The notes: a model not told the origin generated them from the sequence alone. Shown: positions 2,528 to 55,787, numbered from the stretch's first letter. The stretch is DNA of 64,000 nucleotides from Dictyostelium discoideum (GCA_000004695.1 CM000152.2:4192001-4256000), one strand, 5' to 3'. Made by a program: numbers and translations.

Positions 2528-2623
2528 GGGGATGTAGCTCATATGGTAGAGCGTATGGTTTGCATAAACAGCAACGATAATCAGAGTTCCATAAGGTAAA
2601 GGGATCGATACCCTTCTTCTCCA
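2528..2623 (+). tRNA. tRNA-Ala (anticodon UGC) with a ~23-nt intron after position 37. Mature length is 73 nt; no CCA is encoded.
   Basis: GGGGATG acceptor; D arm GCTC-ATATGGTA-GAGC; anticodon stem TATGG/CCATA (2554-2558/2589-2593); loop TTTGCA + T with anticodon TGC; intron approximately 2565..2587. The T arm is AAGGG-ATCGATA-CCCTT and the 3' acceptor CTTCTCC+A. The G3:U70 alanine identity pair is present. One U6-U67 mismatch exists in the acceptor stem, so a pseudogene cannot be excluded. Confidence 0.75.
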
Positions 2624-2900: not shown

Positions 2901-7620
<4,720 letters not shown>

Positions 7621-7689
7621 ATTAATAATATTTTCTTTTTTCTTTGTTATTTTTTTTTTTTTTTTTTTTATATATTTGCCAAAGCACAT

Positions 7690-7732
<43 letters not shown>

Positions 7733-7949
7733 AAAAAAAAAAAAACCTTTATTTGAAACAATTCCAATATCGTTTCAGTTTCTTGTGAAAACAATTTTTT
7801 TTGGATTTGAAATCAGATCCTGACAAGTTTGATGGATGAAAAAAAAAAAAGAAAAAAAAAAATATGAAAAAATGGGTAAAAAAAAAAGGTGAAAAAAAAT
7901 GGGTTTTTTTTTTCCGCTAAGGAAATGATTTTTTATAAATAAATTAATT

Positions 7950-10900
7950 TTAAGCTTCATTCATTGTTTTTAATTTTTGATTTACGTTCTTCATAAAAGT
8001 TTTTTGGTTTTTCTTTCTGAAATGATGATAAATAATTGAGACAACAATGACGGCAGCAAAACCTACAGCACCAATGATAATACCAGCCAATTGAGCGGAT
8101 GATAAACCACCACCAGATTTTGAATTACAAATATTATTATTACCACCATCAGATTTAGAATTATCCAATAAAACAGAGAAATCTGGATCAATAATTGAGG
8201 AAACAGAATAATGTGGTATATCAATACCAATGAATGATTGTGATTTTGTTGGTGTTTTAATTGCACTCATTTCATTATCTAAAATTGAATTTGAAATTGA
8301 AACTATTCTATTATCAATAATACCTCTTTTTAATAATCTACCATAAAGTGAATGTTGATCAATTTGAATTTTAATATAATTTGAATCATCACCTGTACTG
8401 GTATCACCAAATTCATTAGCTGAACAAATTGAATCATCATTTGAATTAGTTTCAAGTTGTGCTGACATCACTAATTGTAATTTATTTAATGCTGAATTAA
8501 ATTTATATTTTGAAAGTTCAATTGTGTATTTAACAGATGAAGGATTCATTTTAATTGTTTGTTGAGCAAAAGTAATATTAGATTCTTTATCAAACCATTG
8601 TAATGTTACATTAACAATAGTTTGATTATTAATATCATCACCAATTGTTGTAATATATTGTTGAGTTTTTTCATTAATTTCTGTTAAAGTCCATTTTTCA
8701 AATCTATGAATTTTATAAACTGAATCATCAAATGTAATTTCTCTAATTGCAACTAAATTAATAATTGATTTAAATGTTATTAATTCATTTGAACCATTAT
8801 TATTATTACCATTATTTGGTATATCAATTGAAATAGTTGGTTCAGTAGAGTTTGGTTTTGGTTGTGGTATAATAATAACAGTGGAACTACAATCAATACC
8901 AATATATGGAGTAAAACAAATACATCCATTTGGTGTACATATTCCTTTATTTGCTCCACCACAATTGTTTTTACATAGTTGTGGTGAATTTGTTGGTAAA
9001 TTTGTATTTTCAGTAGAGGATGATGATGATAAATATGGTGGCGTTGGATCATAAAGTGCTATCCATGGTTTAATAGTATAAATATTTGAAGTTATATTTG
9101 AAGGTGATAATTTTGAAACTTTAATTGTAAAACTATTATTTGTTGGTAAAATATTTGAAATTAAAATTGCACTTGAATAAACTTTTGAAATAATTGGATT
9201 ACCATTTCTTTGTGCTTGTAAATTTTGATTATGGTATGAAAGAGTAACTGAATTTACACCTTTGAAACCTCTACCAAAAATCCATAAATTACCACCATTA
9301 CTATTAATATCTTTATGAGAAGTAATGATTGGTTTATCAATTGAATAAGTACTGATATTAATTGATGATTGGAAACCTAATAAATCTAAATCAGAACTTC
9401 TAAAACCAGAGAAATAACCATTATTATTAACTATACCATATATTGAAAGCAATGCACCATGTGGATATCCAAATGCAATTGGTAATTCAATTTCACAATA
9501 ATATTTTGAATCTTTAAGTAATTGAGATTTACACTGTAATAATTTTAAATCTCCACCAAGTATATAAACTATTGGGTTTTGATCATATTTAATACCACTA
9601 ACTGAATCACGAGTTTCAAAATTAAATGATACTGTTCTATTTAAAGAACCAACATCAATAATACCACTTGAAACTGTAAATGCTATTAACTCTGGTGTAG
9701 TTGTATCATCCCCCTCTGGTATACCACATCCTTGGAAATTAATTGATGTAACTGTCATTTCATCTAAACTTTTTATAAATGGATTGAATGAATCGAATTG
9801 ATCAGGGATTTCATCTAAACTAAATCTTGAATAACGTCCCATTGTATCATTTAAAAATACATTTGTAATAACATAACTTTGTGATTTACATGGATTTGAT
9901 GAATTAATTCTAATAGAATATTGACCAATGAATTTATCACCTAAAATTAAATCATTTGAAGATCTAATTTCAAATTCATATAATGATGAATCTATTGAAC
10001 CTCTTACAATAATTAAACCATATTCAAATCCATTATATAAATCTTCTATAGTAAAATCCCAACCAAAACTATTTACTTCAAATTCTTGAGTAATCTTTTT
10101 AAAAATTGGTCCATAATAATCCATATCTTTTTATTTTAAAAAATAAAAAATAAAAAAAAAATATATATTAGGTTGTTGTTCAATCAATTATTAATTATTA
10201 TTATTATTATTATTATTATGAATGAAAAAATACATACTTTTTGAAATTACATTTAATTGAGTTGGTAATAAATTATGATCAATTTGATAATCACCAAATG
10301 CTATACCATAAACTAAATTACCATGATAAATATTTGCATCAACATAAAAATCTGATTGGAATAAATTTAATGTTGGATTCCAAACTATTGGGAAATATTT
10401 AATATCATTTTGTAATAATGATTTCTTTTGTGTAAAGAAATTAATTGGATAATTATTTGGAACTTCATCTTGATCAAAACTAAAGTAAACTCTATTTGCA
10501 ACTGAAATATTTGAAACATCAATTTCATTAATTACAAATGAAATATTTTTTAAATATTCAATCTTATTTTCTAAATTTTATTTTATTTTAAAAATTAAAA
10601 AATTAATAAATTAATAAATTGTAAAAAATAATATTAATAATTAATATTAATGAATATATAACTTACTTGGTTTAAATGATGAAATATCAAAAGGTGGTAA
10701 TGTATCTGAATAGAAATAAGGTGTTGAAATTTCAAATTTTCTATCAGTTTGATCAATAAAATTTAAATTTCCTAATTTGGTGAAAGTATTATCAACTAAA
10801 ATTTCATATGTACCATTATAAATAGTACCAAAAACTAAACATTCAACACCACCTAATAAAGTATTGATTTCCAACACATAATCTTGAGATATAACATATT

Positions 10901-13786: not shown

Positions 13787-15202
13787 GATTGAAAATAAAC
13801 ACTTACAAGAAAAAAATGAAAAAAAAATAAAAAAATAAAAAAATAAAAAAATAATAAAAAAATAATAAAAAAATAAATTAATTACCACACCAGGTTGGAA
13901 TTAACAATGGTTTAAAATAATTTGAAACAAAAGGTCTAAATTAATTTAATAATACAAATAAAAAGAACAAACAAATCCTAATTCGAAAAAAAAAGATTTT
14001 TTGAATTAAAGACAACAGAAATAAAAATTAAATTAAAAATAAAAAAAAATAAAAAAAATATATTTTTTAAAAAAAAAATTTAAAATAAAAAAAATAAAAA
14101 ATAAAAGATAATTTTTCTGCAAAGATATCATTTTTTTTTTCTTTTTAATAAAAAAAAAGAATTTTTTTTTTTTTTTTTTTTTTTTTTTAGTTACCTTTGT
14201 TTATAAAAAAAGAAAAATCAAAAGCAATAAATAATAAATAATAATAAAAATAATATCAATATAATAATATTAAATCAACAATACATTTTTGTACTAAAAA
14301 TAATAATAATCACCTGTTTTTTTTTTTTTTTAGTATCAATTTTAATTAAAAAATCTTGATCACACCTTTATCTCAAAATTTTTTTTTTTTTCTTTTTTTT
14401 TTTCCCTAATAAAATAATATTTATTTCGCAGCACACAAACACCAGTGCAATAAAAATTTTATTCAATTTCCCTTATTAAATAAGCACACACAAACCACAC
14501 ATCAAAAAAAAAAAAAAAAAAAAAAAACTTAATTCTTTTTTTTTTTTATTTTTTTATTTTTTTTTTTTTTTTTCTTCTTTATTTTTTTTTTTTTAATTTT
14601 ACACTTAAATTTACAAACATCCACATCCACATACTCTTATAACACTAAAATACATATTCATTGACCTTTTAAATAATTATTTTTTTTAAAAAAAAATAAA
14701 AAAAATAAAAAAAGCCAATTGGAAGAAGTATAATTAAATTTTTTTTTTTTTTATTTTATTTTTATTTTTATTACTTTAGTTTTTATATTTATTTATAGAT
14801 ATTTTTATTTTTTATTTTTAAATTTCTATTTTTAAATTTCTATTTTTATTTTTATTTTTATTATTTTTAAAAAAAAAAAAAATAAAAAAACCAAATATTT
14901 AAAAAAATAAATAAATAATAAAAATAAAACCCCCCATTCAACAGTATTTGTAAATACTATCACTTCTGTTACCCCCATTCACACAAAACACACAAAAAAA
15001 AAAAAACAAAAAATAAATATAAAAATAAAAATAATAAAAAGTTAAATTAAAAAATCAAATAAAAAAAAAAAAAAAAAAAAAATAGACCAAGACCAAAAAA
15101 AAAAAAATAAAAAAAAAATAAAAAAGAAATCAATTAAAATAATATTAGTATTGTATTTATATATACATTTAATTAAACTATATTAAAACTAATATAAAAG
15201 AA

Positions 15203-16804
<1,602 letters not shown>

Positions 16805-17151
16805 TATAAAATAAAAATAAAAATAAAATAAATAATATAATAATAATACTAACGTAAAAAAAAAAAAAAAAAAAACCAGTTTTCCCAAGTTTATCAAATA
16901 TTTGTATATTACAGTTATTAATTTCTTCCAAAAGTGAAAACGATAATGGGAAATCCATTGATTTATTAAAAAAATCACACACCCAAATAGCCGAGCAAGT
17001 TAACAGTATGAATCTAGTTCGTTTTTGGTGGCTTGACTAATTCAATTTAATTACTTGAAAAAAAAAAAAAGAAATATTCATTGTATTCTTTTTATATATA
17101 ATAATAATAAAAATAAAAAAAAAAAAATAAAAAAAAAAAAAAAAAAAAAAA

Positions 17152-17200
17152 AGGTCGATTGCAACGGTTTGAAAACCGTGGTACTCATATCTATGTACAT
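17152..17200. promoter_or_regulatory. Palindromic element ACGGTTT-ga-AAACCGT followed by CTATGT..ATTTAATT. A second diverged copy lies at 17792..17830.
   Basis: caacggtttgaaaaccgtggtactcatatctatgtacatttaatt vs cagttttgaaaaccgtctatgtggattcatttaatttt. Both sit in the 1.9-kb intergenic region between the kelch gene and the Bmp-7TM receptor gene. Confidence 0.35.
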
Positions 17201-17253
17201 TTAATTAAAAATTAAGAGACAATTTTTTTTTTTTTTCTAGAATATCTTTTAAG

Positions 17254-17287
<34 letters not shown>

Positions 17288-17838
17288 GTTTTAGGAGTTT
17301 TTTTAATTGGTGGAAATTTTCAGTTTGAAATATCTTGATAAAGTTTCTGTTTTCATAAAATATCACAAGTTTTTTTCATTAAAATCAATGAGATTAAAAT
17401 AATATATTCTTTGCATTAATTAGTTTTATAATAATTAGAGTAAAACTTTTATATTTTAAAATATCTTTTTTAATATTTTTTTTTATTTTTTTTATTCTTT
17501 ATAACAAACAAATTTCAATCATAATTTAATTGGATATTCCATTAAATTAGATTTGGTGATTGATCCAAATTTTTGAAAATGAAAAAAATTCAATGAATCC
17601 CCATTACCCTCACTTCTATTTGTTGATGAAGGTTGGCCAAAAATTAAAAATGAAATAAACAATAAAGAAAAAAAAAAAAAAAAAAAAAATAATAGCTTTT
17701 ATAAAAATAAAATTATAATAACAAAAAAAAAATGGTTTAAATGATATAAAAAAAGGGCATATAATTAATAATTAAAAATTAATAATTAAAACAGTTTTGA
17801 AAACCGTCTATGTGGATTCATTTAATTTTTTTTTTAAA

Positions 17839-17870
<32 letters not shown>

Positions 17871-18415
17871 CGTATGTTTGCTTGTTCTTAATTTTTTTTA
17901 ATTTTTTTTTTTTTTTTTTTAATTTCTTTTTTTAAATTCTAATTATTGATTTTAGATTTCGTCTTTTGAAAAAAAATTTTTTTATTGGACGATAAAAATA
18001 TTTTTAAAAATAGTTTTTTTTATTTTAATTTTTTTTTTTATTTTTTTTTTAAAAATTTTTTTTTTTTTTTTTTTAAAGCAAAACAACACAATAATTTCAA
18101 AAATTTCTAAAAAAAATTTTTTTTTTTTTTTTTTTTGAAAAATTTTTCATTGGTCAAAAATAAAATATCTTCTATTTTCATTGGTTTTCAAATAATTATG
18201 GCTTTTTTTAATCAACAAAACGAATGAAGCACTTTCTATCCAATCAGATCTTTTTATAATAATAATTTTGATTGATTTGAGACGATAAAAATTACCAAAA
18301 TTTGTGTAGGCACGAGTAGTTTAACTGCCTATAAAACTGTTTTTTTTTTTTTTTTTTTTCTATTTTTTTTTTATTTTCTATTTTTTTTTTTTTTTTTTAT
18401 TTTTATTTTCTTATC

Positions 18416-18470
<55 letters not shown>

Positions 18471-18773
18471 CTCTAAACATTTTTAAAATAGAAATAAAAC
18501 AAGATTTACTATCGAAACTTAATATATAATAATATTTAGTTTTGTTTGTGTATTGTTTATATATTGTATATTTACGAAAGAAACTTTTTTTTTTTTTTTT
18601 TTTATATTGTATAGTAGTATTAAAAAAAAAATTAAATAAAAAAAAAAAAAAAAAACGACCCATTGTATTATAATAACCACAAAAAAAAAAAAAAAAAAAA
18701 TCTTATCTCCACACAACAAAAAAAAAAAAAAAAAAAAAAAAAAACCAGATTTTTTTTTTTCTTGAAAAAAAAA

Positions 18774-19695
18774 ATGAAATTAATAATAAAAAATTTAATA
18801 CTTTTATTAGTATCATGTTTATACTTTTTAAGTAATGTAAGTTGTGATCAAGAAGTTCATATGGCTTTACTCTTGGAAGGACAAGTTGATGATTTAGGTA
18901 TCAATTATGAAGTTAATCAAGGTTTAGCAGAGACAGAAGCATTAATTCAAAGAGCGGCCAAAGTTATTAATGATGCCAACTCATATGATTCAACTTATGA
19001 TAATATTAAAAGTTTATTAGATCAAGATAATCCATACAATTTAATCATCACAAGTTCAGAAAGTCAAATGTCAGCAGCATTAGACATTGCCTCTGATTAT
19101 GAAGATACATATTTCTTAATTTTTGGTGACATGGGTGACAAAAAAGTGCCACATAGTAAAGTTGGTACCTACTATTTCAATTTGGTTTCACCACATTTCG
19201 TTTTGGGTTTCATTGCAGGTGGTATGGGTAAAAGCGTTGGTATGGTTGTACCAGGTCCACCAACTGAGAATTATTTCACTGCAAATGCTTTTTACGCCGG
19301 TATGAAATATTATACGTCACCAGCTGGTGCACCAAATCCATCTTTATCAGTTGTAGCCACTTCAAGTTATGATGATTATGATACTGCAACTGGTGCTGGT
19401 AGAATTTTATTAACCAAAGATATCGATATTTGTACTCAAAGTCAAACCGATATGACCGTTGCAAATATGTTTTTAAATGCTTCAAAATGGGCTTTTGGTA
19501 CAAATGGTTTCCCACAATCAAACATCTATGGTAATCGTATCATTCAATCTGTTGTTCATAATTTTCAAGTGCCATTCTATGAAGCTGCAACTATGGTAAT
19601 GAAAAATACTTGGAAAAATGGCTATAATTTCTTTGGTGATTTTAATAATAATTTCTTTTATTTAGATTATTATAGTTTTTTAGTAAGTTTAAATT

Positions 19696-19747
<52 letters not shown>

Positions 19748-21017
19748 ATAATAATAATAATTATTAATTTATTCATTTATTTATTTATTTTATTTTTAGG
19801 TTGATCCATTACTTAAAAATCAAACTGAAGATTTAATTTCAACAATTAAAGGTGGTGCTAAACCATATATTACAAATGGTTTAACTTATGAAAAAATATT
19901 AGAACAAACTAAACTTTCAACAGGAATTACTGATTTAGGTTATTATGCAGTACCAACTACTGAAGTTTATACAACTGGTAGTATTAATAAAACATTTATG
20001 GCAGTTTCAATCTTAGAGATGGCAATTTGTTTAATTATTGGTATAATTGTAATTTTCTTCTTTAGTAGAAATATTAATATCATCTATTCAACCATTCCAT
20101 ATTGTTTAACCATTTTATTGGGAGCATCTCTTATTGCAGTGGCTATTTTCCTTTGGAATCTTCGTGATTTAAATACTCAAATTTGTACATCAAAGATTTG
20201 GATGGCATCATTGGGTTACAATGTTTTAATTGGTTTCATTATTATCAAGAGTTCATTGATCTACTTTAAATTCAAAGAGATGGTTAAATCAAAGAATGAA
20301 AAGATTAGTCCAATTCCATTTGGTCGTATTGTTCTCTGGTTCGTTCCATTGTTAATTATCGATTGTGTTTTATTGATCATCTATAGTACTAGTGGTAATC
20401 CAGGTAAAATCGATTCACTCGGTTTGGATGGTATTGGCAGATATGAATACACTCAAAATTGTGTAAACAATTTAACCGGTGATATCATCCTTTACATTAT
20501 CTTGGTTTTCCATGGTTTACAATTACTCTATGGTTGTGTTATCGCTTGGAAGACTCGTGTCATCGATTTGGAAGAATTCATTGAAGCTCATGATTTCGCT
20601 ACCGCCATTTATTTAATCACTTTCTGTAGTTTCATTATCGTTATTCTCATGGTTGGTGTCACTTCAACTAGTAACAGAAATACAATTATCTCTGCTTGTG
20701 CTATCTTTTCTTCCTTCTCTTGTGTATTAATTATTTTTGGTGCTAAATTCTGGAAAATTTATAAACCAGTTGAAGATGATGGTCTTCCACAAATTAAACT
20801 AAAGCCACAAAAATCTTACAGTGGTTCTGGTGGTTCTGGTAACTCAAGTGGTTCAAAGTCAAAGAAAACCTCTGCTCACTCTAGCACAAGTGGTGTTAAA
20901 TCTGGTACTTCTGCTCCAACTCAAACTTCTCAAAGTGCTATGGCCAGTATTAATATTCAAAACTTTGTAAATCCAATTGAAGCAAGTTCAAGAGCTGCTG
21001 CACAAAATGATAATTAA
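18774..21017 (+). CDS. Receptor with a signal peptide, an N-terminal Bmp/PnrA-like periplasmic-binding-protein domain (~300 aa), seven TM helices and a Ser/Gly-rich cytoplasmic tail (family-C-GPCR-like architecture). Exon 1 18774..19682, intron 19683..19799, exon 2 19800..21017.
   Basis: ATG at 18774 begins MKLIIKNLILLLVSCLYFLSNVSC. The region HMALLLEGQVDDLGINYEVNQGLAE...LIFGDMGD.. resembles Bmp-family (PnrA/Med-type) sugar/nucleoside-binding lipoproteins. Exon 1 ends at TTA|GTAAGT (19683). The intron contains a 48-nt poly(A) tract and ends in TTTTTAG at 19799. The phase-0 junction continues ..YYSFL-VDPLLKNQTEDL.. into the ORF holding 7 hydrophobic helices (IGIIVIFFF; ILLGASLIAVAIFLW; LGYNVLIGFIII; WFVPLLIIDCVLLIIY; IILYIILVFHGLQLLYGCVIAW; AIYLITFCSFIIVILMVGV; ISACAIFSSFSCVLIIFGA). 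Confidence 0.65.
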
Positions 21018-21400: not shown

Positions 21401-22232
21401 TTAATTAATTTTTGATCTTTTCTTTAATAATTCATTTAATAAAATTTGATGATTAGATGGTGAATCAGGTTTACCTTTTATTTTTTGAGGTTGTTGTGGT
21501 AATTTTGTAATATTTATAAGTTTTGGTTTTGATTTTAGAATTGGTTGAGTGGCTTGTGGTTGTTTTGAAAGTTGATCAATTTTCTCTTCTAAAAATAGAG
21601 TCCATTCCATTTGTTTCTTTTGATCAGTTCTAAATTTAGGTAGGGAAGCTCTAATGGATCTTAATTCATCAATTGTTAAAGAACGAGAAAGTAGATAAGA
21701 TTGGAAATCATTTTGATGTTTTGATAGAATTGCTTTTGGATCCATACCAATTAATGAAAGTTCAGGATTTTCTTTAATTCTTTCTCTAATTTCCAAAGAT
21801 TGTTGATTTGGTGGTATTGAATAAATTGGTTTCATTTTTGATAAAGATTTCAAATTTAAAGGTTCATTTAAACGACGTTTTTCATCTTGAATCATTTGAA
21901 TTTCTCTTCTATACTCTTCAGTCATTGATAATTCTTGAAATAATTTTTCAAATTTAACATTAGCATCATTACGTTCTTTTTCACCAACCTTATCATTTAA
22001 TATAATCTTTTGAATTTCTTCCATTTCCGATTTCATATTTAAATGTGTTCTTTTAAATTGTTCATTATTATTATTATTATTATTTGTTGTAGATGAATTT
22101 AATAAATTAATTGATTGAAATTGTTTCATATCATCTAATTTTCTAATAAATTCTTCTAAACGATCTAATTTTTCTAATTTTGTAACTAATAAAGAAATTT
22201 GTTCATTTTGTTGTTGAATTATTAAATTTGAT

Positions 22233-22285
<53 letters not shown>

Positions 22286-25074
22286 TAAAGATGAGTTTGA
22301 TCTATTTAATGATGAAGTTGAAGAGTTTAATTCATTTAATGAAGATGATTTTATTAAAGATGATTGAAGTTCTAATTGAGTTTTAATTTTAGAATTATTT
22401 AATTCAACTAAATTTAATTCCATTTCTTTATTTTTTAAAGTAGCAGTTTGAATTTTTTCAGAGATATCTTTAATTTTTTTACCTAAGGGAGTATCAAATA
22501 ATTTATTATTTGCAATTGAAGCAGATGCAGCACTATCAGGTTTTTGTGAAATATTTACAAGTATACCAACCATTTCATTTAATTTCTCTTCAATTTGTTT
22601 TGGTGTTCCATTTGTTAAAGTATTTTTTAAATTTGAACCACTTGAAAGTTCTTTTTCCAATTGATCCTTTTCTTTTTGAATTTGGTCTCTTGATTGAACT
22701 GCTCTATTTCTTTCTCTTTCAATTGCTTCGTTTGTATTTGTAAGTGATTTAATTTGACTTTCTAATCGTTTAACTTCAGATTCTAAACGATCAATTAATT
22801 TTTGATCCCTTTCAGCCAACTTTAATTTCTCTTGTACTAAAATTCTAGACTTCTTTTCTAAATCAATTTCACTTTCTAATTGTTTAACTTTTAATTGTAG
22901 TTGTTCAATTGAATGAATTGATTTGACAGTATTTGGAACGATACCAGTTATGGTTGATAGTTGTTGCTGTTGTTGTTGTTTTAATTGTTTCAATTCTTGT
23001 TCCAATTTTGAATTTTCACGTTCTAATAATATCTTTTTCTCACGCATTACATCTGATAATTCTTTTTGAGTATCTAATTCCATTATTAAAAGTTTTTCTT
23101 TGGTTTGAGCTTGTTCCAATTCTTTAATTAATTTTTTAGATTCTTCACGTTCAAATTCTTTTTTCTCAGTTTCTTTTCTTTTTAATTGTTGTTCATATTC
23201 TAATTCTTTTTCTAATTTTTCAGATTCCTTTTCAAATAATTTATATTTTTCATTTAAAATCTCTTTTTCTTGAATTAATGATTGATTTTCAGCTTCTAAA
23301 ATTTTAAATCTATACCATAATTCATCATAGGATTTAACTTGAGTATTGGATTTTGTTGATGCTAATTCTCTTTTTAAATTTAAAACTTCCCTTTCAAGTA
23401 AATTTACATCTTCTAATGCACTCTCTTTTGATCTTCTTTCATTCTCTAATTCAACAATGAAAATTTTCATTTTTGATTCAACATCATGTGAACTACTCAT
23501 TATATTATTATTATTAAAAATTGATGCATGAATTAAATTCATTGAATTATTGTTATTATTATTATAAGATGAAGAAGAAGGTGATGATGATGATGATGAT
23601 GGTAAAAATGAAGAAGTTGGTGGTGATGTTGATGATGGTGATGTTGATTTAGTTAGAAGTTTTTCATTAGATTTATTATTTCCAACAGTTTTTGTCATTA
23701 AATTCTTTCCTTTTGATGGTACTTTTTGTAATGGAGTTGCAGTACTAACAACTACTGTTGACTTTTTAATAGTAGTTGGTTGTTGTGATTGAACAATTAT
23801 TAATCTTTCCATATCGTCAATATCTTCTTGCATTTTCTTTAATTTCACTTTCTCTGATATAACTGGTTTACCTTGCTTCTCTAATTGTTTAATTGTTTCA
23901 TTTAATTTTAAAATTAAATCCTTTTGAATTTGAATTTGTTTCTTTACAATACTTTCTTTATCTTTAATAGTTTCTTCAATGATTAAATCTTCTTCTTTTG
24001 TATATTCATTCAAGGAATTATTAGTGATATTTTTATTACTATTATTATTCAAAGACATAATACTACCATGATTTTCATTATCATCAATTGGTATTAATGG
24101 TACCATATATCTTGAATTAATTGATTCACCTCTTTGAGTTTCTAAAATATCAGATCCGCTATTATTTCCACCAACACTAATACTAACTGGATATCCATAA
24201 TTAATATTATGTTCAGGTGTGATTGAATTTGGTGATGATGAAGATGATGATGTTGTTGAACAACTTGTTGTACTACTAACTGTTAGGTAGTTATTACTAC
24301 TACTACTACTTGTATTGTTATTGATATTTTTGTTACTACCATTACTAATACCACTAATTGTTGATGGCTTCCATTGTTGAGTTGGTTGAGATTGTGATGT
24401 TGGTTGAGAATCATTTTGGGAGGTAAGTGGAGTTGGTGGTTCAAAAAATTCTCTTGGGATTGATGATCTTGATTTGGCTCTTATTAATCTATGAATAAAA
24501 GTAAATTGAATTTGAAGACTTCCAGTTACAATCTTTGGTTTTTGTCCTTCCTTTAATGGTCTATCAGTTAAATAATACCACTGTGGACCTTGTGGTAAAT
24601 TTAATGCTTTTATTGGAATTTGAATTTGACCAATAAATTTTGATCCACCAGTTTTTTGTTCTTTTACTGTTAATGTTACTTCATCATCTTGAAATGTCAT
24701 TAAATCTCTTTAAAAAAATAAAAATGTTAATTCTTTAGTATAGGATAAAAAAAAAGGAAAAAAAAAAAAAAGAAAAAAAAGAAAAAAACTTACAAAACAA
24801 ATTTTTCAAATATTTTTGGATCAGGTCCTTTAAATAAATGAGTTTTGAAAGTTTTGTTTGGTGGTAGATCAATAATTACAAATATATCACCAGATTTTAT
24901 TCCCTTTGTTTCAAATACTAAAAATATTTATTTTATTTAATTTATTTTTTGATTAGAGATATTTTTATTTTTATTTTATTATTATTATTTTTTTTTTAGT
25001 GGGAAAATATCATGATTTTTGGATTACTTACAGGTTATTTCAATATCTCCTTTTTTATTTTTTAGAGATGCCAT
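21401..25074 (-). CDS. N-terminal C2 domain + very long coiled-coil protein, 3 exons: exon 1 25074..25032 (43 nt), exon 2 24917..24794, exon 3 24707..21401.
   Basis: Minus-strand ATGGCATCTCTAAAAAATAAAAAAGGAGATATTGAAATAACC-T|GTAAGT at 25074 (MASLKNKKGDIEIT). The acceptor TTTTTAG at 24920-24918 opens exon 2, which ends tt|GTAAGT (donor 24793). A TACTAAAG motif precedes the acceptor TTTAAAG at 24708, and the junction reads in frame into MTFQDDEV of ORF 21401..24700. The joined N-terminus has a C2-like fold signature (GDIFVIIDLPPNKTFKTHLFKGPDPKIFEKFVLDL..LTVKEQKTGGSKFIGQIQIPIKALNLPQGPQWYYLTDRP). The rest consists of heptad-rich EKLK/LEQEL repeats with poly-Asn and poly-Ser linkers. Confidence 0.65.
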
Positions 25075-48493: not shown

Positions 48494-48787
48494 TAATAAA
48501 AAAATAAAAAATTTATAATTTTATAAAAAACTACCTATTCGTGGTATATATATATATAACAAATATACTTGTATGTGGTATATTTGAATCATTTAAAGTT
48601 TTTTTTCAATTGGTCAAAAATTAGTTAAACTAATTTAATTATCCATTTTAATTAAAAGGTGGGATCAAGCTCTTTAGTATTTTCTTGGTTTCTACACCAT
48701 AACAATAAAATTTGTTAGAATTTTTTAAATCACCAAAAAAAATTTATCAACTTATTCGGGCAATTACCACAAAATCTCACCAACAAA

Positions 48788-48858
48788 GCGTATGTGGTCT
48801 AGTGGTATGATAGCTGCCTTCCAAGCAGTTGAACCGGGTTCGATTCCCGGCATACGCA
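48788..48858 (+). tRNA. tRNA-Gly (anticodon UCC), 71 nt, no intron.
   Basis: GCGTATGTGGTCTAGTGGTATGATAGCTGCCTTCCAAGCAGTTGAACCGGGTTCGATTCCCGGCATACGCA. It is near-identical to eukaryotic tRNA-Gly-UCC (established sequence family) and has the A and B boxes and the T-loop GGTTCGATTCC. Confidence 0.9.
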
Positions 48859-48905
48859 AATATTTTACAAAAATCAACATTTCCCGAACTTCAGGAATAG
48901 AACAT

Positions 48906-54856: not shown

Positions 54857-55159
54857 AATAAAATAAAATAAAATAATAAAAAAAAAATTTGTAATTTAGA
54901 ATTCAATTTTCCTTTAAATTTGTTTTAATCATAATTAATTTTAAAATATAGTGCAGTAATTGTTATAATTTTTTTTTTTTTAAAAAATCAAATAATAAGA
55001 TTGTAATTGATTAGATGAATTGGTAAAAGGAGATAAGATTAGAAAGCACTGATTCTAGAACACAGTACTTTGCAAGTTATATTTATGTTAACTGGACAAG
55101 AGTCGAACTTATGTTCTTTTTCCGGAAGTTCCGAGAATATTGGTTTGTAGAAAAATATA

Positions 55160-55230
55160 TGCGTATGCCGGGAATCGAACCCGGTTCAACTGCTTGGAAG
55201 GCAGCTATCATACCACTAGACCACATACGC
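55160..55230 (-). tRNA. tRNA-Gly (anticodon UCC), second copy in inverted orientation.
   Basis: Exact reverse complement of the 48788..48858 tRNA (TGCGTATGCCGGGAATCGAACCCGGTTCAACTGCTTGGAAGGCAGCTATCATACCACTAGACCACATACGC). Confidence 0.9.
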
Positions 55231-55787
55231 TATGTTGATGAGATTTTGGGGTAAATGCCCGAATAAGTTTTAAAAAAATTATTGATGATTTTGATTGATT
55301 AAATTTTTTTTGGTGATGTAGAAAAATTTTATATTAAAAATTTAGGGGAAATAATAATTTGTTTGATTATGTATTTTTTATCTTACAAATACCAAATTAT
55401 AAAACTCAAACTCCCTTTAAACCAATTTCAATAAAGTACTCAACAAAACTCAATTTGGGTTTTACTTTTTTGACATTTAACCAAAATGAAAATATTTTTT
55501 TTTTTTTCAACTTAAAAAGTCACAACTTTCAATCACGATTTAAATAAATTTAAAAATCCATTTTAATGGTTTGGTTTTTATTTTATTTTTAAAAAAAAAA
55601 AAAAATAAAAAAATAAAAAAAAAAAAAAAAATGGCCAAGAATAATAAATTGGTTTTTTTTTTTGGTTTTTAGATAAACCTTTCAAATAAAATTTAATTAA
55701 ATTTTTTTTTAAAATATTATTGGTCCTGAGGAAACTAATGGAAAAAAAAAAAAAAAAAAAAAATTATCAGTATAATTTATATAAAAC

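Follow-up and report, generated by a model that had tools for sequence, protein, structure and literature searches.

The two-exon gene at positions 18774..21017 (+ strand) of a 64,000-nucleotide stretch of Dictyostelium discoideum DNA (the window) is almost certainly grlL (far1), which codes for a class C (family 3, GABA-B-like) folate GPCR with a Bmp/PnrA-type ectodomain. An exact-sequence look-up found its 708-residue spliced product 100% identical to XP_640887.1 / EAL66902.1 / UniProt Q54U89 of D. discoideum AX4; with all 708 residues the same, this is the same gene. The database name of Q54U89 is "Metabotropic glutamate receptor-like protein L," i.e., GrlL. Table 1 of Prabhu et al. 2007 places GrlL on chromosome 3, with 708 residues, 78.0 kDa, a BMP domain, and a signal peptide (PMC1885808), and the length, signal peptide, and BMP domain of the window protein agree with that row. 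Gene order is conserved in Dictyostelium firmibasis (sequence L001), in which a + strand upstream gene and the grlL orthologue are followed by a large - strand gene. No observation speaks against this identification. The gene is already known, as are its Bmp-type flytrap and its ligand; all three have been published and are in databases.

Gene model and domain architecture of grlL

The window is very AT-rich, with a G+C content of 22.7%; its intergenic DNA contains poly(A)/poly(T), and its open reading frames are rich in Asn. Exon 1 (18774..19682, +) reads in frame from the ATG at 18774 through 303 codons (residues 1-303) up to a GTAAGT donor at 19683, and encodes the signal peptide and most of the Bmp-type ectodomain. 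The intron (19683..19799, +) is a canonical GT-AG intron of 117 nt, poly(A)-rich and A/T-rich, running from GTAAGT to TTTTAG. Exon 2 (19800..21017, +) continues in the same frame for 405 codons and a TAA stop (21015..21017), and supplies residues 304-708, namely, the end of the ectodomain, the seven-helix (7TM) domain, and the C-terminal tail. Both peptides cited in a preliminary description of this DNA, ALLLEGQVDDLGINYEVNQGL and LIFGDMGDKKV, were found in the translation.

That description had treated the two exons as one transcript. This was borne out, since the spliced product is the RefSeq/UniProt protein, the junction (...YSFLV|DP...) is gap-free in an alignment of seven dictyostelid orthologues (44-90% identity), and an intron interrupts the D. 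firmibasis orthologue at this very position (305 nt, L001 6904..7208). Despite their shared position, the sequences of the two introns do not align with each other. In addition, RT-PCR has yielded the full-length grlL cDNA, with which the knock-out is rescued (PMC5476428). It is extremely improbable that the gene model is an artefact in which a secreted Bmp-like binding protein (exon 1) and a 7TM protein (exon 2) come from separate transcripts without any fusion. The Bmp Pfam match does lie wholly within exon 1 and the 7tm_3 match wholly within exon 2, and automated annotation errs at this locus, as two newer assemblies join the upstream Kelch gene to grlL. Nevertheless, exon 2 starts inside the ectodomain, with residues 304-366 preceding TM1, and it has no start codon with its own signal peptide. 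The gap-free junction in the seven orthologues, the intron position kept in D. firmibasis, and the presence of Bmp together with 7tm_3 in 26 of the 60 Pfam-scanned sequences of the ectodomain search set (see below) also argue against separate transcripts, which we consider effectively refuted.

The newer D. discoideum assemblies carry annotated Kelch-GrlL fusions with lengths of 1162 and 1205 residues. We judged them to be artefacts, because the end of the Kelch gene is joined to a point midway through the signal peptide (...LFILEP|LSCLYF...), which deletes the start codon.

The cleavable signal peptide proposed previously, MKLIIKNLILLLVSCLYFLSNVSC (18774..18845, +; residues 1-24), is supported by an N-terminal hydrophobic segment at residues 1-23 and by the positive entry for signal peptide in Table 1 of PMC1885808. 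It is followed by a Bmp/PnrA-like domain (18858..19625, +; residues 29-284), which corresponds to the N-lobe and most of the C-lobe of a Venus-flytrap ligand-binding module. We ran the HMM check of the preliminary description, and this segment matched the Pfam family Bmp (PF02608, "ABC transporter substrate-binding protein PnrA-like") with 53.3 bits, above the cut-off of 24.1, and E=2.8e-14. At E<=1 the Pfam scan of the 708 residues returned only Bmp and 7tm_3, without ANF_receptor (PF01094) or NCD3G. The linker (residues 285-366) is not Cys-rich.

Searches of the PDB were performed with a profile built from the seven orthologues. The ectodomain matched AtzT (1.8e-17), Med (6.5e-17), the Brucella basic membrane lipoprotein BMP (2.1e-16), and Lbp (1.7e-13), and it matched no mGluR or GABA-B flytrap in this profile search. 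The same search with the single ectodomain sequence gave far weaker matches (Med, 1e-4; AtzT, 3e-3) and no alignment to PnrA or BmpD; hence, only a loop of the N-lobe was mapped onto those proteins (see below). The PDB relatives are bacterial Bmp proteins and ANF_receptor gave no match, confirming that the ectodomain is of the Bmp type rather than the ANF/LIVBP type.

Structure prediction of the ectodomain led to the same family. An AlphaFold2 model was built from a 7-sequence alignment; its overall pLDDT is 62.8, but the ectodomain is usable, with two alpha/beta lobes at pLDDT 65-92. The top 13 Foldseek matches against the PDB were all Bmp-family, in the order AtzT, Brucella BMP (3s99), Lbp with guanosine, 4p98, RfuA with riboflavin, and PnrA, with TM-scores per target of 0.68-0.82. 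Lower in the list came Med (0.85) and BmpD (0.74), and then full-length GABA-B and mGlu receptors. Identity between the ectodomain and the solved bacterial Bmp proteins in these matches is only about 15-20%. The preliminary description had named the lack of any significant Bmp or periplasmic-binding-protein HMM hit as the outcome that would speak against it; the ectodomain does have such a hit, so this is not what was found.

The ectodomain thus shares Pfam family and fold with the bacterial Bmp/PnrA lipoproteins (Treponema pallidum PnrA and RfuA, Borrelia burgdorferi BmpD, Brucella BMP 3s99, Med, AtzT, and Lbp). Those proteins are soluble or lipid-anchored partners of ABC transporters, except for Med, which is a regulator, whereas the GrlL domain is covalently fused to a GPCR. 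As part of one polypeptide with a 7TM receptor, in a eukaryote, it is not a lipoprotein partner of an ABC transporter.

The 7tm_3 domain (PF00003; 19989..20747, +; residues 367-619) covers profile positions 9-251 of 251, with 107.2 bits against a cut-off of 33.5 and E=1.5e-30. We checked the topology of the seven helices that had been described. Seven hydrophobic segments lie between residues 367 and 621, and AlphaFold, although it modelled the 7TM poorly, placed seven long helices at 363-391, 402-423, 431-467, 477-500, 528-562, 567-589, and 593-624. PDB-profile matches of this region were GABA-B2 (6.7e-15) and GABA-B1 (about 3e-8).

GrlL has two hallmarks of class C GPCRs, a 7tm_3 domain above the gathering score and a Venus-flytrap ectodomain of the type I periplasmic-binding-protein fold, and lacks two others, the ANF_receptor/LIVBP flytrap subtype and the NCD3G spacer. 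The NCD3G spacer is found in mGluR, CaSR, and T1R and is absent from GABA-B. Class C receptors also typically form constitutive dimers. Metazoan GABA-B receptors (GB1/GB2) resemble GrlL in their homologous 7TM domain, for which GB2 is the match at E=6.7e-15, and in the direct joining of flytrap and 7TM without NCD3G. They differ in their flytrap, which is ANF_receptor/LIVBP-type in GABA-B and Bmp-type, without an ANF match, in GrlL. The obligate GB1/GB2 heterodimer and its coiled-coil tail are not evident in GrlL.

The cytoplasmic tail (20748..21014, +; residues 620-708) comprises KIYKPVEDDGLPQIKLK, a low-complexity stretch, and a SINIQNFVNPIE motif; both KIYKPVEDDGLPQIKLK and SINIQNFVNPIE are conserved among the orthologues. 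The Ser/Gly-rich composition noted before was found again, with Thr as a further abundant residue, from about residue 640 to 708. AlphaFold modelled the tail as disordered (pLDDT <50).

Distribution of the Bmp-7TM architecture

The preliminary description regarded the fusion of a Bmp module to a 7TM domain as unusual. This implied novelty does not hold, as the architecture has already been described in 13 of the 17 Grl receptors of D. discoideum (PMC1885808, PMC3251606, PMC3971589, and PMC10445921) and in other eukaryotes, and the gene itself is the characterised fAR1. Krishnan et al. 2012 reported BMP (PF02608) in 13 D. discoideum members of the Glutamate family and in two Allomyces macrogynus receptors (PMC3251606). 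According to de Mendoza et al. 2014, distant eukaryotes have in common the configurations in which 7tm_3 is combined with ANF_receptor, OpuAC, or Bmp (PMC3971589). BMP ectodomains occur in clades 2-7 of the family-3 receptors and ANF only in GrlE (PMC10445921).

We performed an exhaustive search with the exon-1 ectodomain, which yielded 61 cluster representatives at E<=1e-3. In the Pfam scan of 60 sequences (the window protein and 59 search matches), Bmp was present in 58, and 26 had both Bmp and 7tm_3. The matches bearing names are dictyostelids, and proteins of bacterial length appeared only at about 23-27% identity. A profile search with the orthologue alignment in a word-indexed protein database added nothing to the 8 orthologues of the single-sequence search and reached neither paralogues nor bacterial relatives. 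The distribution was thus taken from the exhaustive representative search and from the literature.

Other dictyostelid Bmp-type Grl receptors (GrlG/fAR2, GrlH, GrlD, GrlJ, GrlA, and others) share the signal peptide, Bmp, and 7tm_3 (PMC1885808, PMC10445921). They are paralogues with about 25-33% ectodomain identity to GrlL, and their ligands are different or unassigned. Unlike most of them, GrlL has a single orthologue in every dictyostelid group; only two other Grl receptors are likewise represented by single orthologues across Dictyostelia (PMC10445921). The A. macrogynus proteins AMAG_08984 and AMAG_12053 have the same Bmp-7tm_3 combination in a different lineage (PMC3251606, PMC3971589).

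Bmp/PnrA is mainly a family of bacterial lipoproteins, and the solved relatives of the ectodomain are all prokaryotic, as would be expected if the domain stemmed from a recent horizontal transfer or from bacterial contamination rather than being a long-resident eukaryotic domain. We give this origin almost no credence. The exon composition is typical of Dictyostelium and a spliceosomal intron is present; the most closely related proteins are likewise eukaryotic Bmp-7TM receptors, with bacterial-length proteins at only the low identities given above; and the fusion is found throughout Dictyostelia and reported in Allomyces too.

The upstream region of grlL

The 5' region of grlL spans 1.97 kb and is bounded by the stop codon, at 16804, of the preceding Kelch-repeat gene and by the ATG at 18774. 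It had been described as containing a duplicated palindromic element, and the two copies are real. Copy 1 (17164..17222, +) consists of the palindrome ACGGTTTGAAAACCGT (17164..17179) followed at a distance by TCTATGTACATTTAAT, and copy 2 (17791..17830, +) of the palindrome ACAGTTTTGAAAACCGT (17791..17807) and then CTATGTGGATTCATTTAAT; (T)CTATGT...ATTTAAT comes after each palindrome. Allowing up to 1 mismatch, the 13-nt core GTTTGAAAACCGT occurs only at these two sites in the 64 kb, against a chance expectation of 0.18; one of 100 shuffles reached two sites.

Each copy also has a counterpart in D. firmibasis, the species used for the upstream comparison; the Dictyostelium dimigraforme orthologue lies at a contig end, without upstream DNA. 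The counterpart of copy 1 (L001 4273..4330) is 78% identical over 58 nt, in the distal half of the upstream region, which does not otherwise align (about 50% identity). Copy 2 aligns collinearly (L001 about 5076..5095, AACGGTTTGAAAATCGTCTA), as does the proximal 1.08 kb upstream of grlL. A second D. discoideum strain (L002) keeps both palindromes.

The best-conserved block of the putative grlL promoter (18137..18306, +) is 91% identical to L001 5385..5556, as compared with 87-90% for the coding exons and an unalignable intron. It holds ATTGG twice, CCAAT once, and GACGATAAAAAT; the latter is found again at 17988..17999, within a further conserved stretch (36 nt, 94% identical). grlL is transcriptionally regulated and mostly repressed upon exposure to bacteria or folate (PMC7078664). 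This regulation and the conservation of the upstream blocks make the latter plausible grlL promoter elements. For the 5' region with its palindromes as the putative regulatory region of grlL, as suggested in the preliminary description, the sequence comparison offers modest support.

The upstream blocks were also considered as non-coding RNA, and this was rejected, as 16700..18900 had no Rfam match at E<=1. At the gathering score, Rfam returned nothing except tRNAs in the whole window, and ARAGORN detected no tRNA in the grlL upstream region. The conserved upstream region does not contain CCTTACAGCAA, the class I RNA motif.

Folate, LPS, and the putative ligand pocket

As the chemoattractant receptor for folate, GrlL is known as fAR1 (Pan et al. 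2016, as cited in PMC5476428, PMC5969738, and PMC10445921). grlL-null cells lose chemotaxis to folate and keep that to cAMP, and the full-length cDNA restores the response (PMC5476428). Folate chemotaxis via fAR1 needs G-alpha-4 and G-beta (PMC5476428, PMC5969738). The ectodomain, of roughly 350 residues, has been modelled as a Venus flytrap, with bacterial binding proteins making up all of the top-20 HHpred matches, and folate was docked into its cleft (PMC5969738). Deletion of residues 30-355 abolished ERK2 activation by folate and by LPS, with the protein still at the membrane (PMC5969738).

The role of fAR1 in phagocytosis and LPS recognition is disputed. That fAR1 is a chemoreceptor only, and not a pattern-recognition or phagocytic LPS receptor, is a substantial possibility, if not quite an even one. 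E. coli, B. subtilis, and folate-coated beads are phagocytosed equally by grlL-null and rescued cells, and the folate-coated beads give no stimulation (PMC5476428). The opposing evidence is that far1-null cells bind less FITC-LPS and are defective in Klebsiella uptake, that excess folate competes with LPS and lowers its binding, and that LPS-triggered Ras, PI3K, actin, and ERK2 responses depend on fAR1 and its flytrap (PMC5969738).

The mechanism is as follows. The signal peptide puts the N-terminus outside the cell, where about 340 extracellular residues form a two-lobed Venus flytrap that belongs to the Bmp/PnrA branch of the periplasmic binding proteins and is connected straight to the seven-helix domain without a cysteine-rich spacer. 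According to published work, this ectodomain senses folate secreted by bacteria, and the receptor signals via G-alpha-4/G-beta to Ras, PI3K, ERK2, and actin, resulting in chemotaxis towards the bacteria. In the data of one laboratory, the ectodomain also binds LPS core sugars and promotes the engulfment of Klebsiella. The ligand would lie in the cleft between the lobes, where bacterial Bmp proteins hold a purine, flavin, or nucleoside, and lobe closure may be transmitted to the 7TM domain as in GABA-B receptors.

In BmpD, Asp19-Gly20 and Asn28, equivalent to Asp27-Ser28 and Asn37 of PnrA, contact the purine base, which stacks between two Phe residues (PMC7093131). A GrlL motif, E35-G36-x6-I43-N44, has the same spacing as this base loop and was mapped onto it by that spacing. 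E35, G36, and N44 are invariant in the seven orthologues, and the position of the stacking Phe, Ile43 in GrlL, varies among Ile, His, and Ser. Judging from the sequence motif, E35-G36 and N44 would correspond to the base-contacting residues of BmpD and PnrA. Relative to bacterial Bmp/PnrA, GrlL would thus have kept the acidic residue-Gly and Asn positions and replaced one stacking Phe. The ligands of the bacterial Bmp relatives are planar N-heterocycles (purines, riboflavin), and the pterin ring of folate is likewise one; therefore, a pterin ligand fits the chemistry of the family.

The true or additional ligands of GrlL might instead be nucleosides or purines, as in Bmp/PnrA, with folate being one of several heterocycles. 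The closest solved relatives bind guanosine, adenosine/inosine, or riboflavin, and the acidic residue-Gly and Asn positions of the base loop are invariant. The ligands of AtzT are guanine and hydroxyatrazine. The genetics favour folate, however, as nulls lose folate but keep cAMP chemotaxis. The fAR1 literature examined reports no nucleoside response, and one stacking Phe is replaced by Ile43. We hold nucleoside ligands to be improbable.

Two separate ideas, on pocket and promoter, can be put forward tentatively, as possible but on the unlikely side: the dual specificity for folate and LPS would reuse both subsites of the ancestral Bmp/PnrA nucleoside pocket, and the conserved upstream blocks and palindromes would form a module repressing far1. 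Neither idea is explicit in the literature consulted. In the pocket, the guanine-like pterin may occupy the base subsite (E35-G36, N44) and the LPS core sugars the ribose subsite. In the promoter, far1 may be repressed upon exposure to folate or bacteria by the palindrome pair together with 18137..18306 and the CCAAT/ATTGG boxes in it.

The two-subsite pocket would explain why folate competes with LPS. For the receptor family, the Bmp-type flytrap of GrlL shows that periplasmic binding proteins from more than one branch were recruited into class C GPCRs, and that a scaffold for binding purines and flavins gave rise to a folate chemoreceptor in a eukaryote.

Conserved and rearranged sequence upstream of grlL

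Two non-coding blocks lie 5′ of the folate receptor gene grlL (far1). The longer, at 18137..18306, is 91% identical to its D. firmibasis counterpart and conserved no less than the grlL coding exons, which share 87-90% identity. It contains two ATTGG motifs, one CCAAT motif and GACGATAAAAAT, a further copy of which is found at 17988..17999, inside the other conserved stretch, 17978..18013. The blocks, for which Rfam has no matching family, are likely to be promoter elements of grlL.

Just downstream of the longer block, a 33-nt segment, GCACGAGTAGTTTAACTGCCTATAAAACTGTTT (18310..18342), matches the D. firmibasis locus L001 at 5609..5577 with 85% identity but in reverse orientation. The window copy lies within a TAGGCA...TGCCTA inverted repeat, so that a hairpin seems to have mediated a small inversion that distinguishes the two species. 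Farther upstream, the first ~240 nt past the stop codon of the neighboring Kelch-repeat gene (16805..17046) have no counterpart at the corresponding D. firmibasis site (L001 4162). A 30-nt island in this region, AATGGGAAATCCATTGATTTATTAAAAAAA (16945..16974), was located at L001 4902..4931, ~740 nt farther downstream in D. firmibasis. The distal intergenic region has undergone rearrangement between D. discoideum and D. firmibasis.

Annotated Kelch-GrlL fusions

In two recent D. discoideum assemblies, the upstream Kelch-repeat gene and grlL are annotated as encoding a single protein (P0001, 1162 aa, and P0012, 1205 aa); the region concerned is 4001..9821 of the locus in a second strain (L002) and about 15200..21017 of the window. 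As the predicted splice leads from ...LFILEP to a point partway through the GrlL signal peptide (LSCLYF...), with loss of the GrlL start codon, the fusion is almost certainly a gene-prediction artefact, and we rejected it.

Downstream gene and tRNA genes

Beyond the 3′ end of grlL, and convergent with it, lies a coiled-coil, low-complexity open reading frame of 1099 aa (21401..24700, minus strand). Its location is conserved both in D. firmibasis (L001 8761..12504) and in a further D. discoideum strain; the copy in that strain has a weak C2 annotation.

Two tRNA-Gly(UCC) genes, at 48788..48858 and 55160..55230, lie in inverted 160-nt arms (48727..48886, plus strand, and 55132..55291, minus strand) separated by 6.2 kb and showing 86% complementarity. 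The tRNA gene has thus been duplicated in inverted orientation together with its flanking sequence. Another tRNA, at 2528..2623 (plus strand), was detected by Rfam (49 bits, span of 96 nt) and not called by ARAGORN; it presumably contains an intron.

Bmp domains in other proteins

Some distant relatives of the GrlL ectodomain (P0032, P0048, P0059, P0060, P0063 and P0073) combine Bmp with modules unlike the GrlL-type 7TM. One named match is an 865-aa protein of the holozoan Pigoraptor chileana. The partners identified by Pfam, in one protein each, are a protein kinase, FGE-sulfatase, PNP_UDP_1 and Ephrin_rec_like/NCD3G. Several eukaryotic receptor types appear to have recruited Bmp domains.
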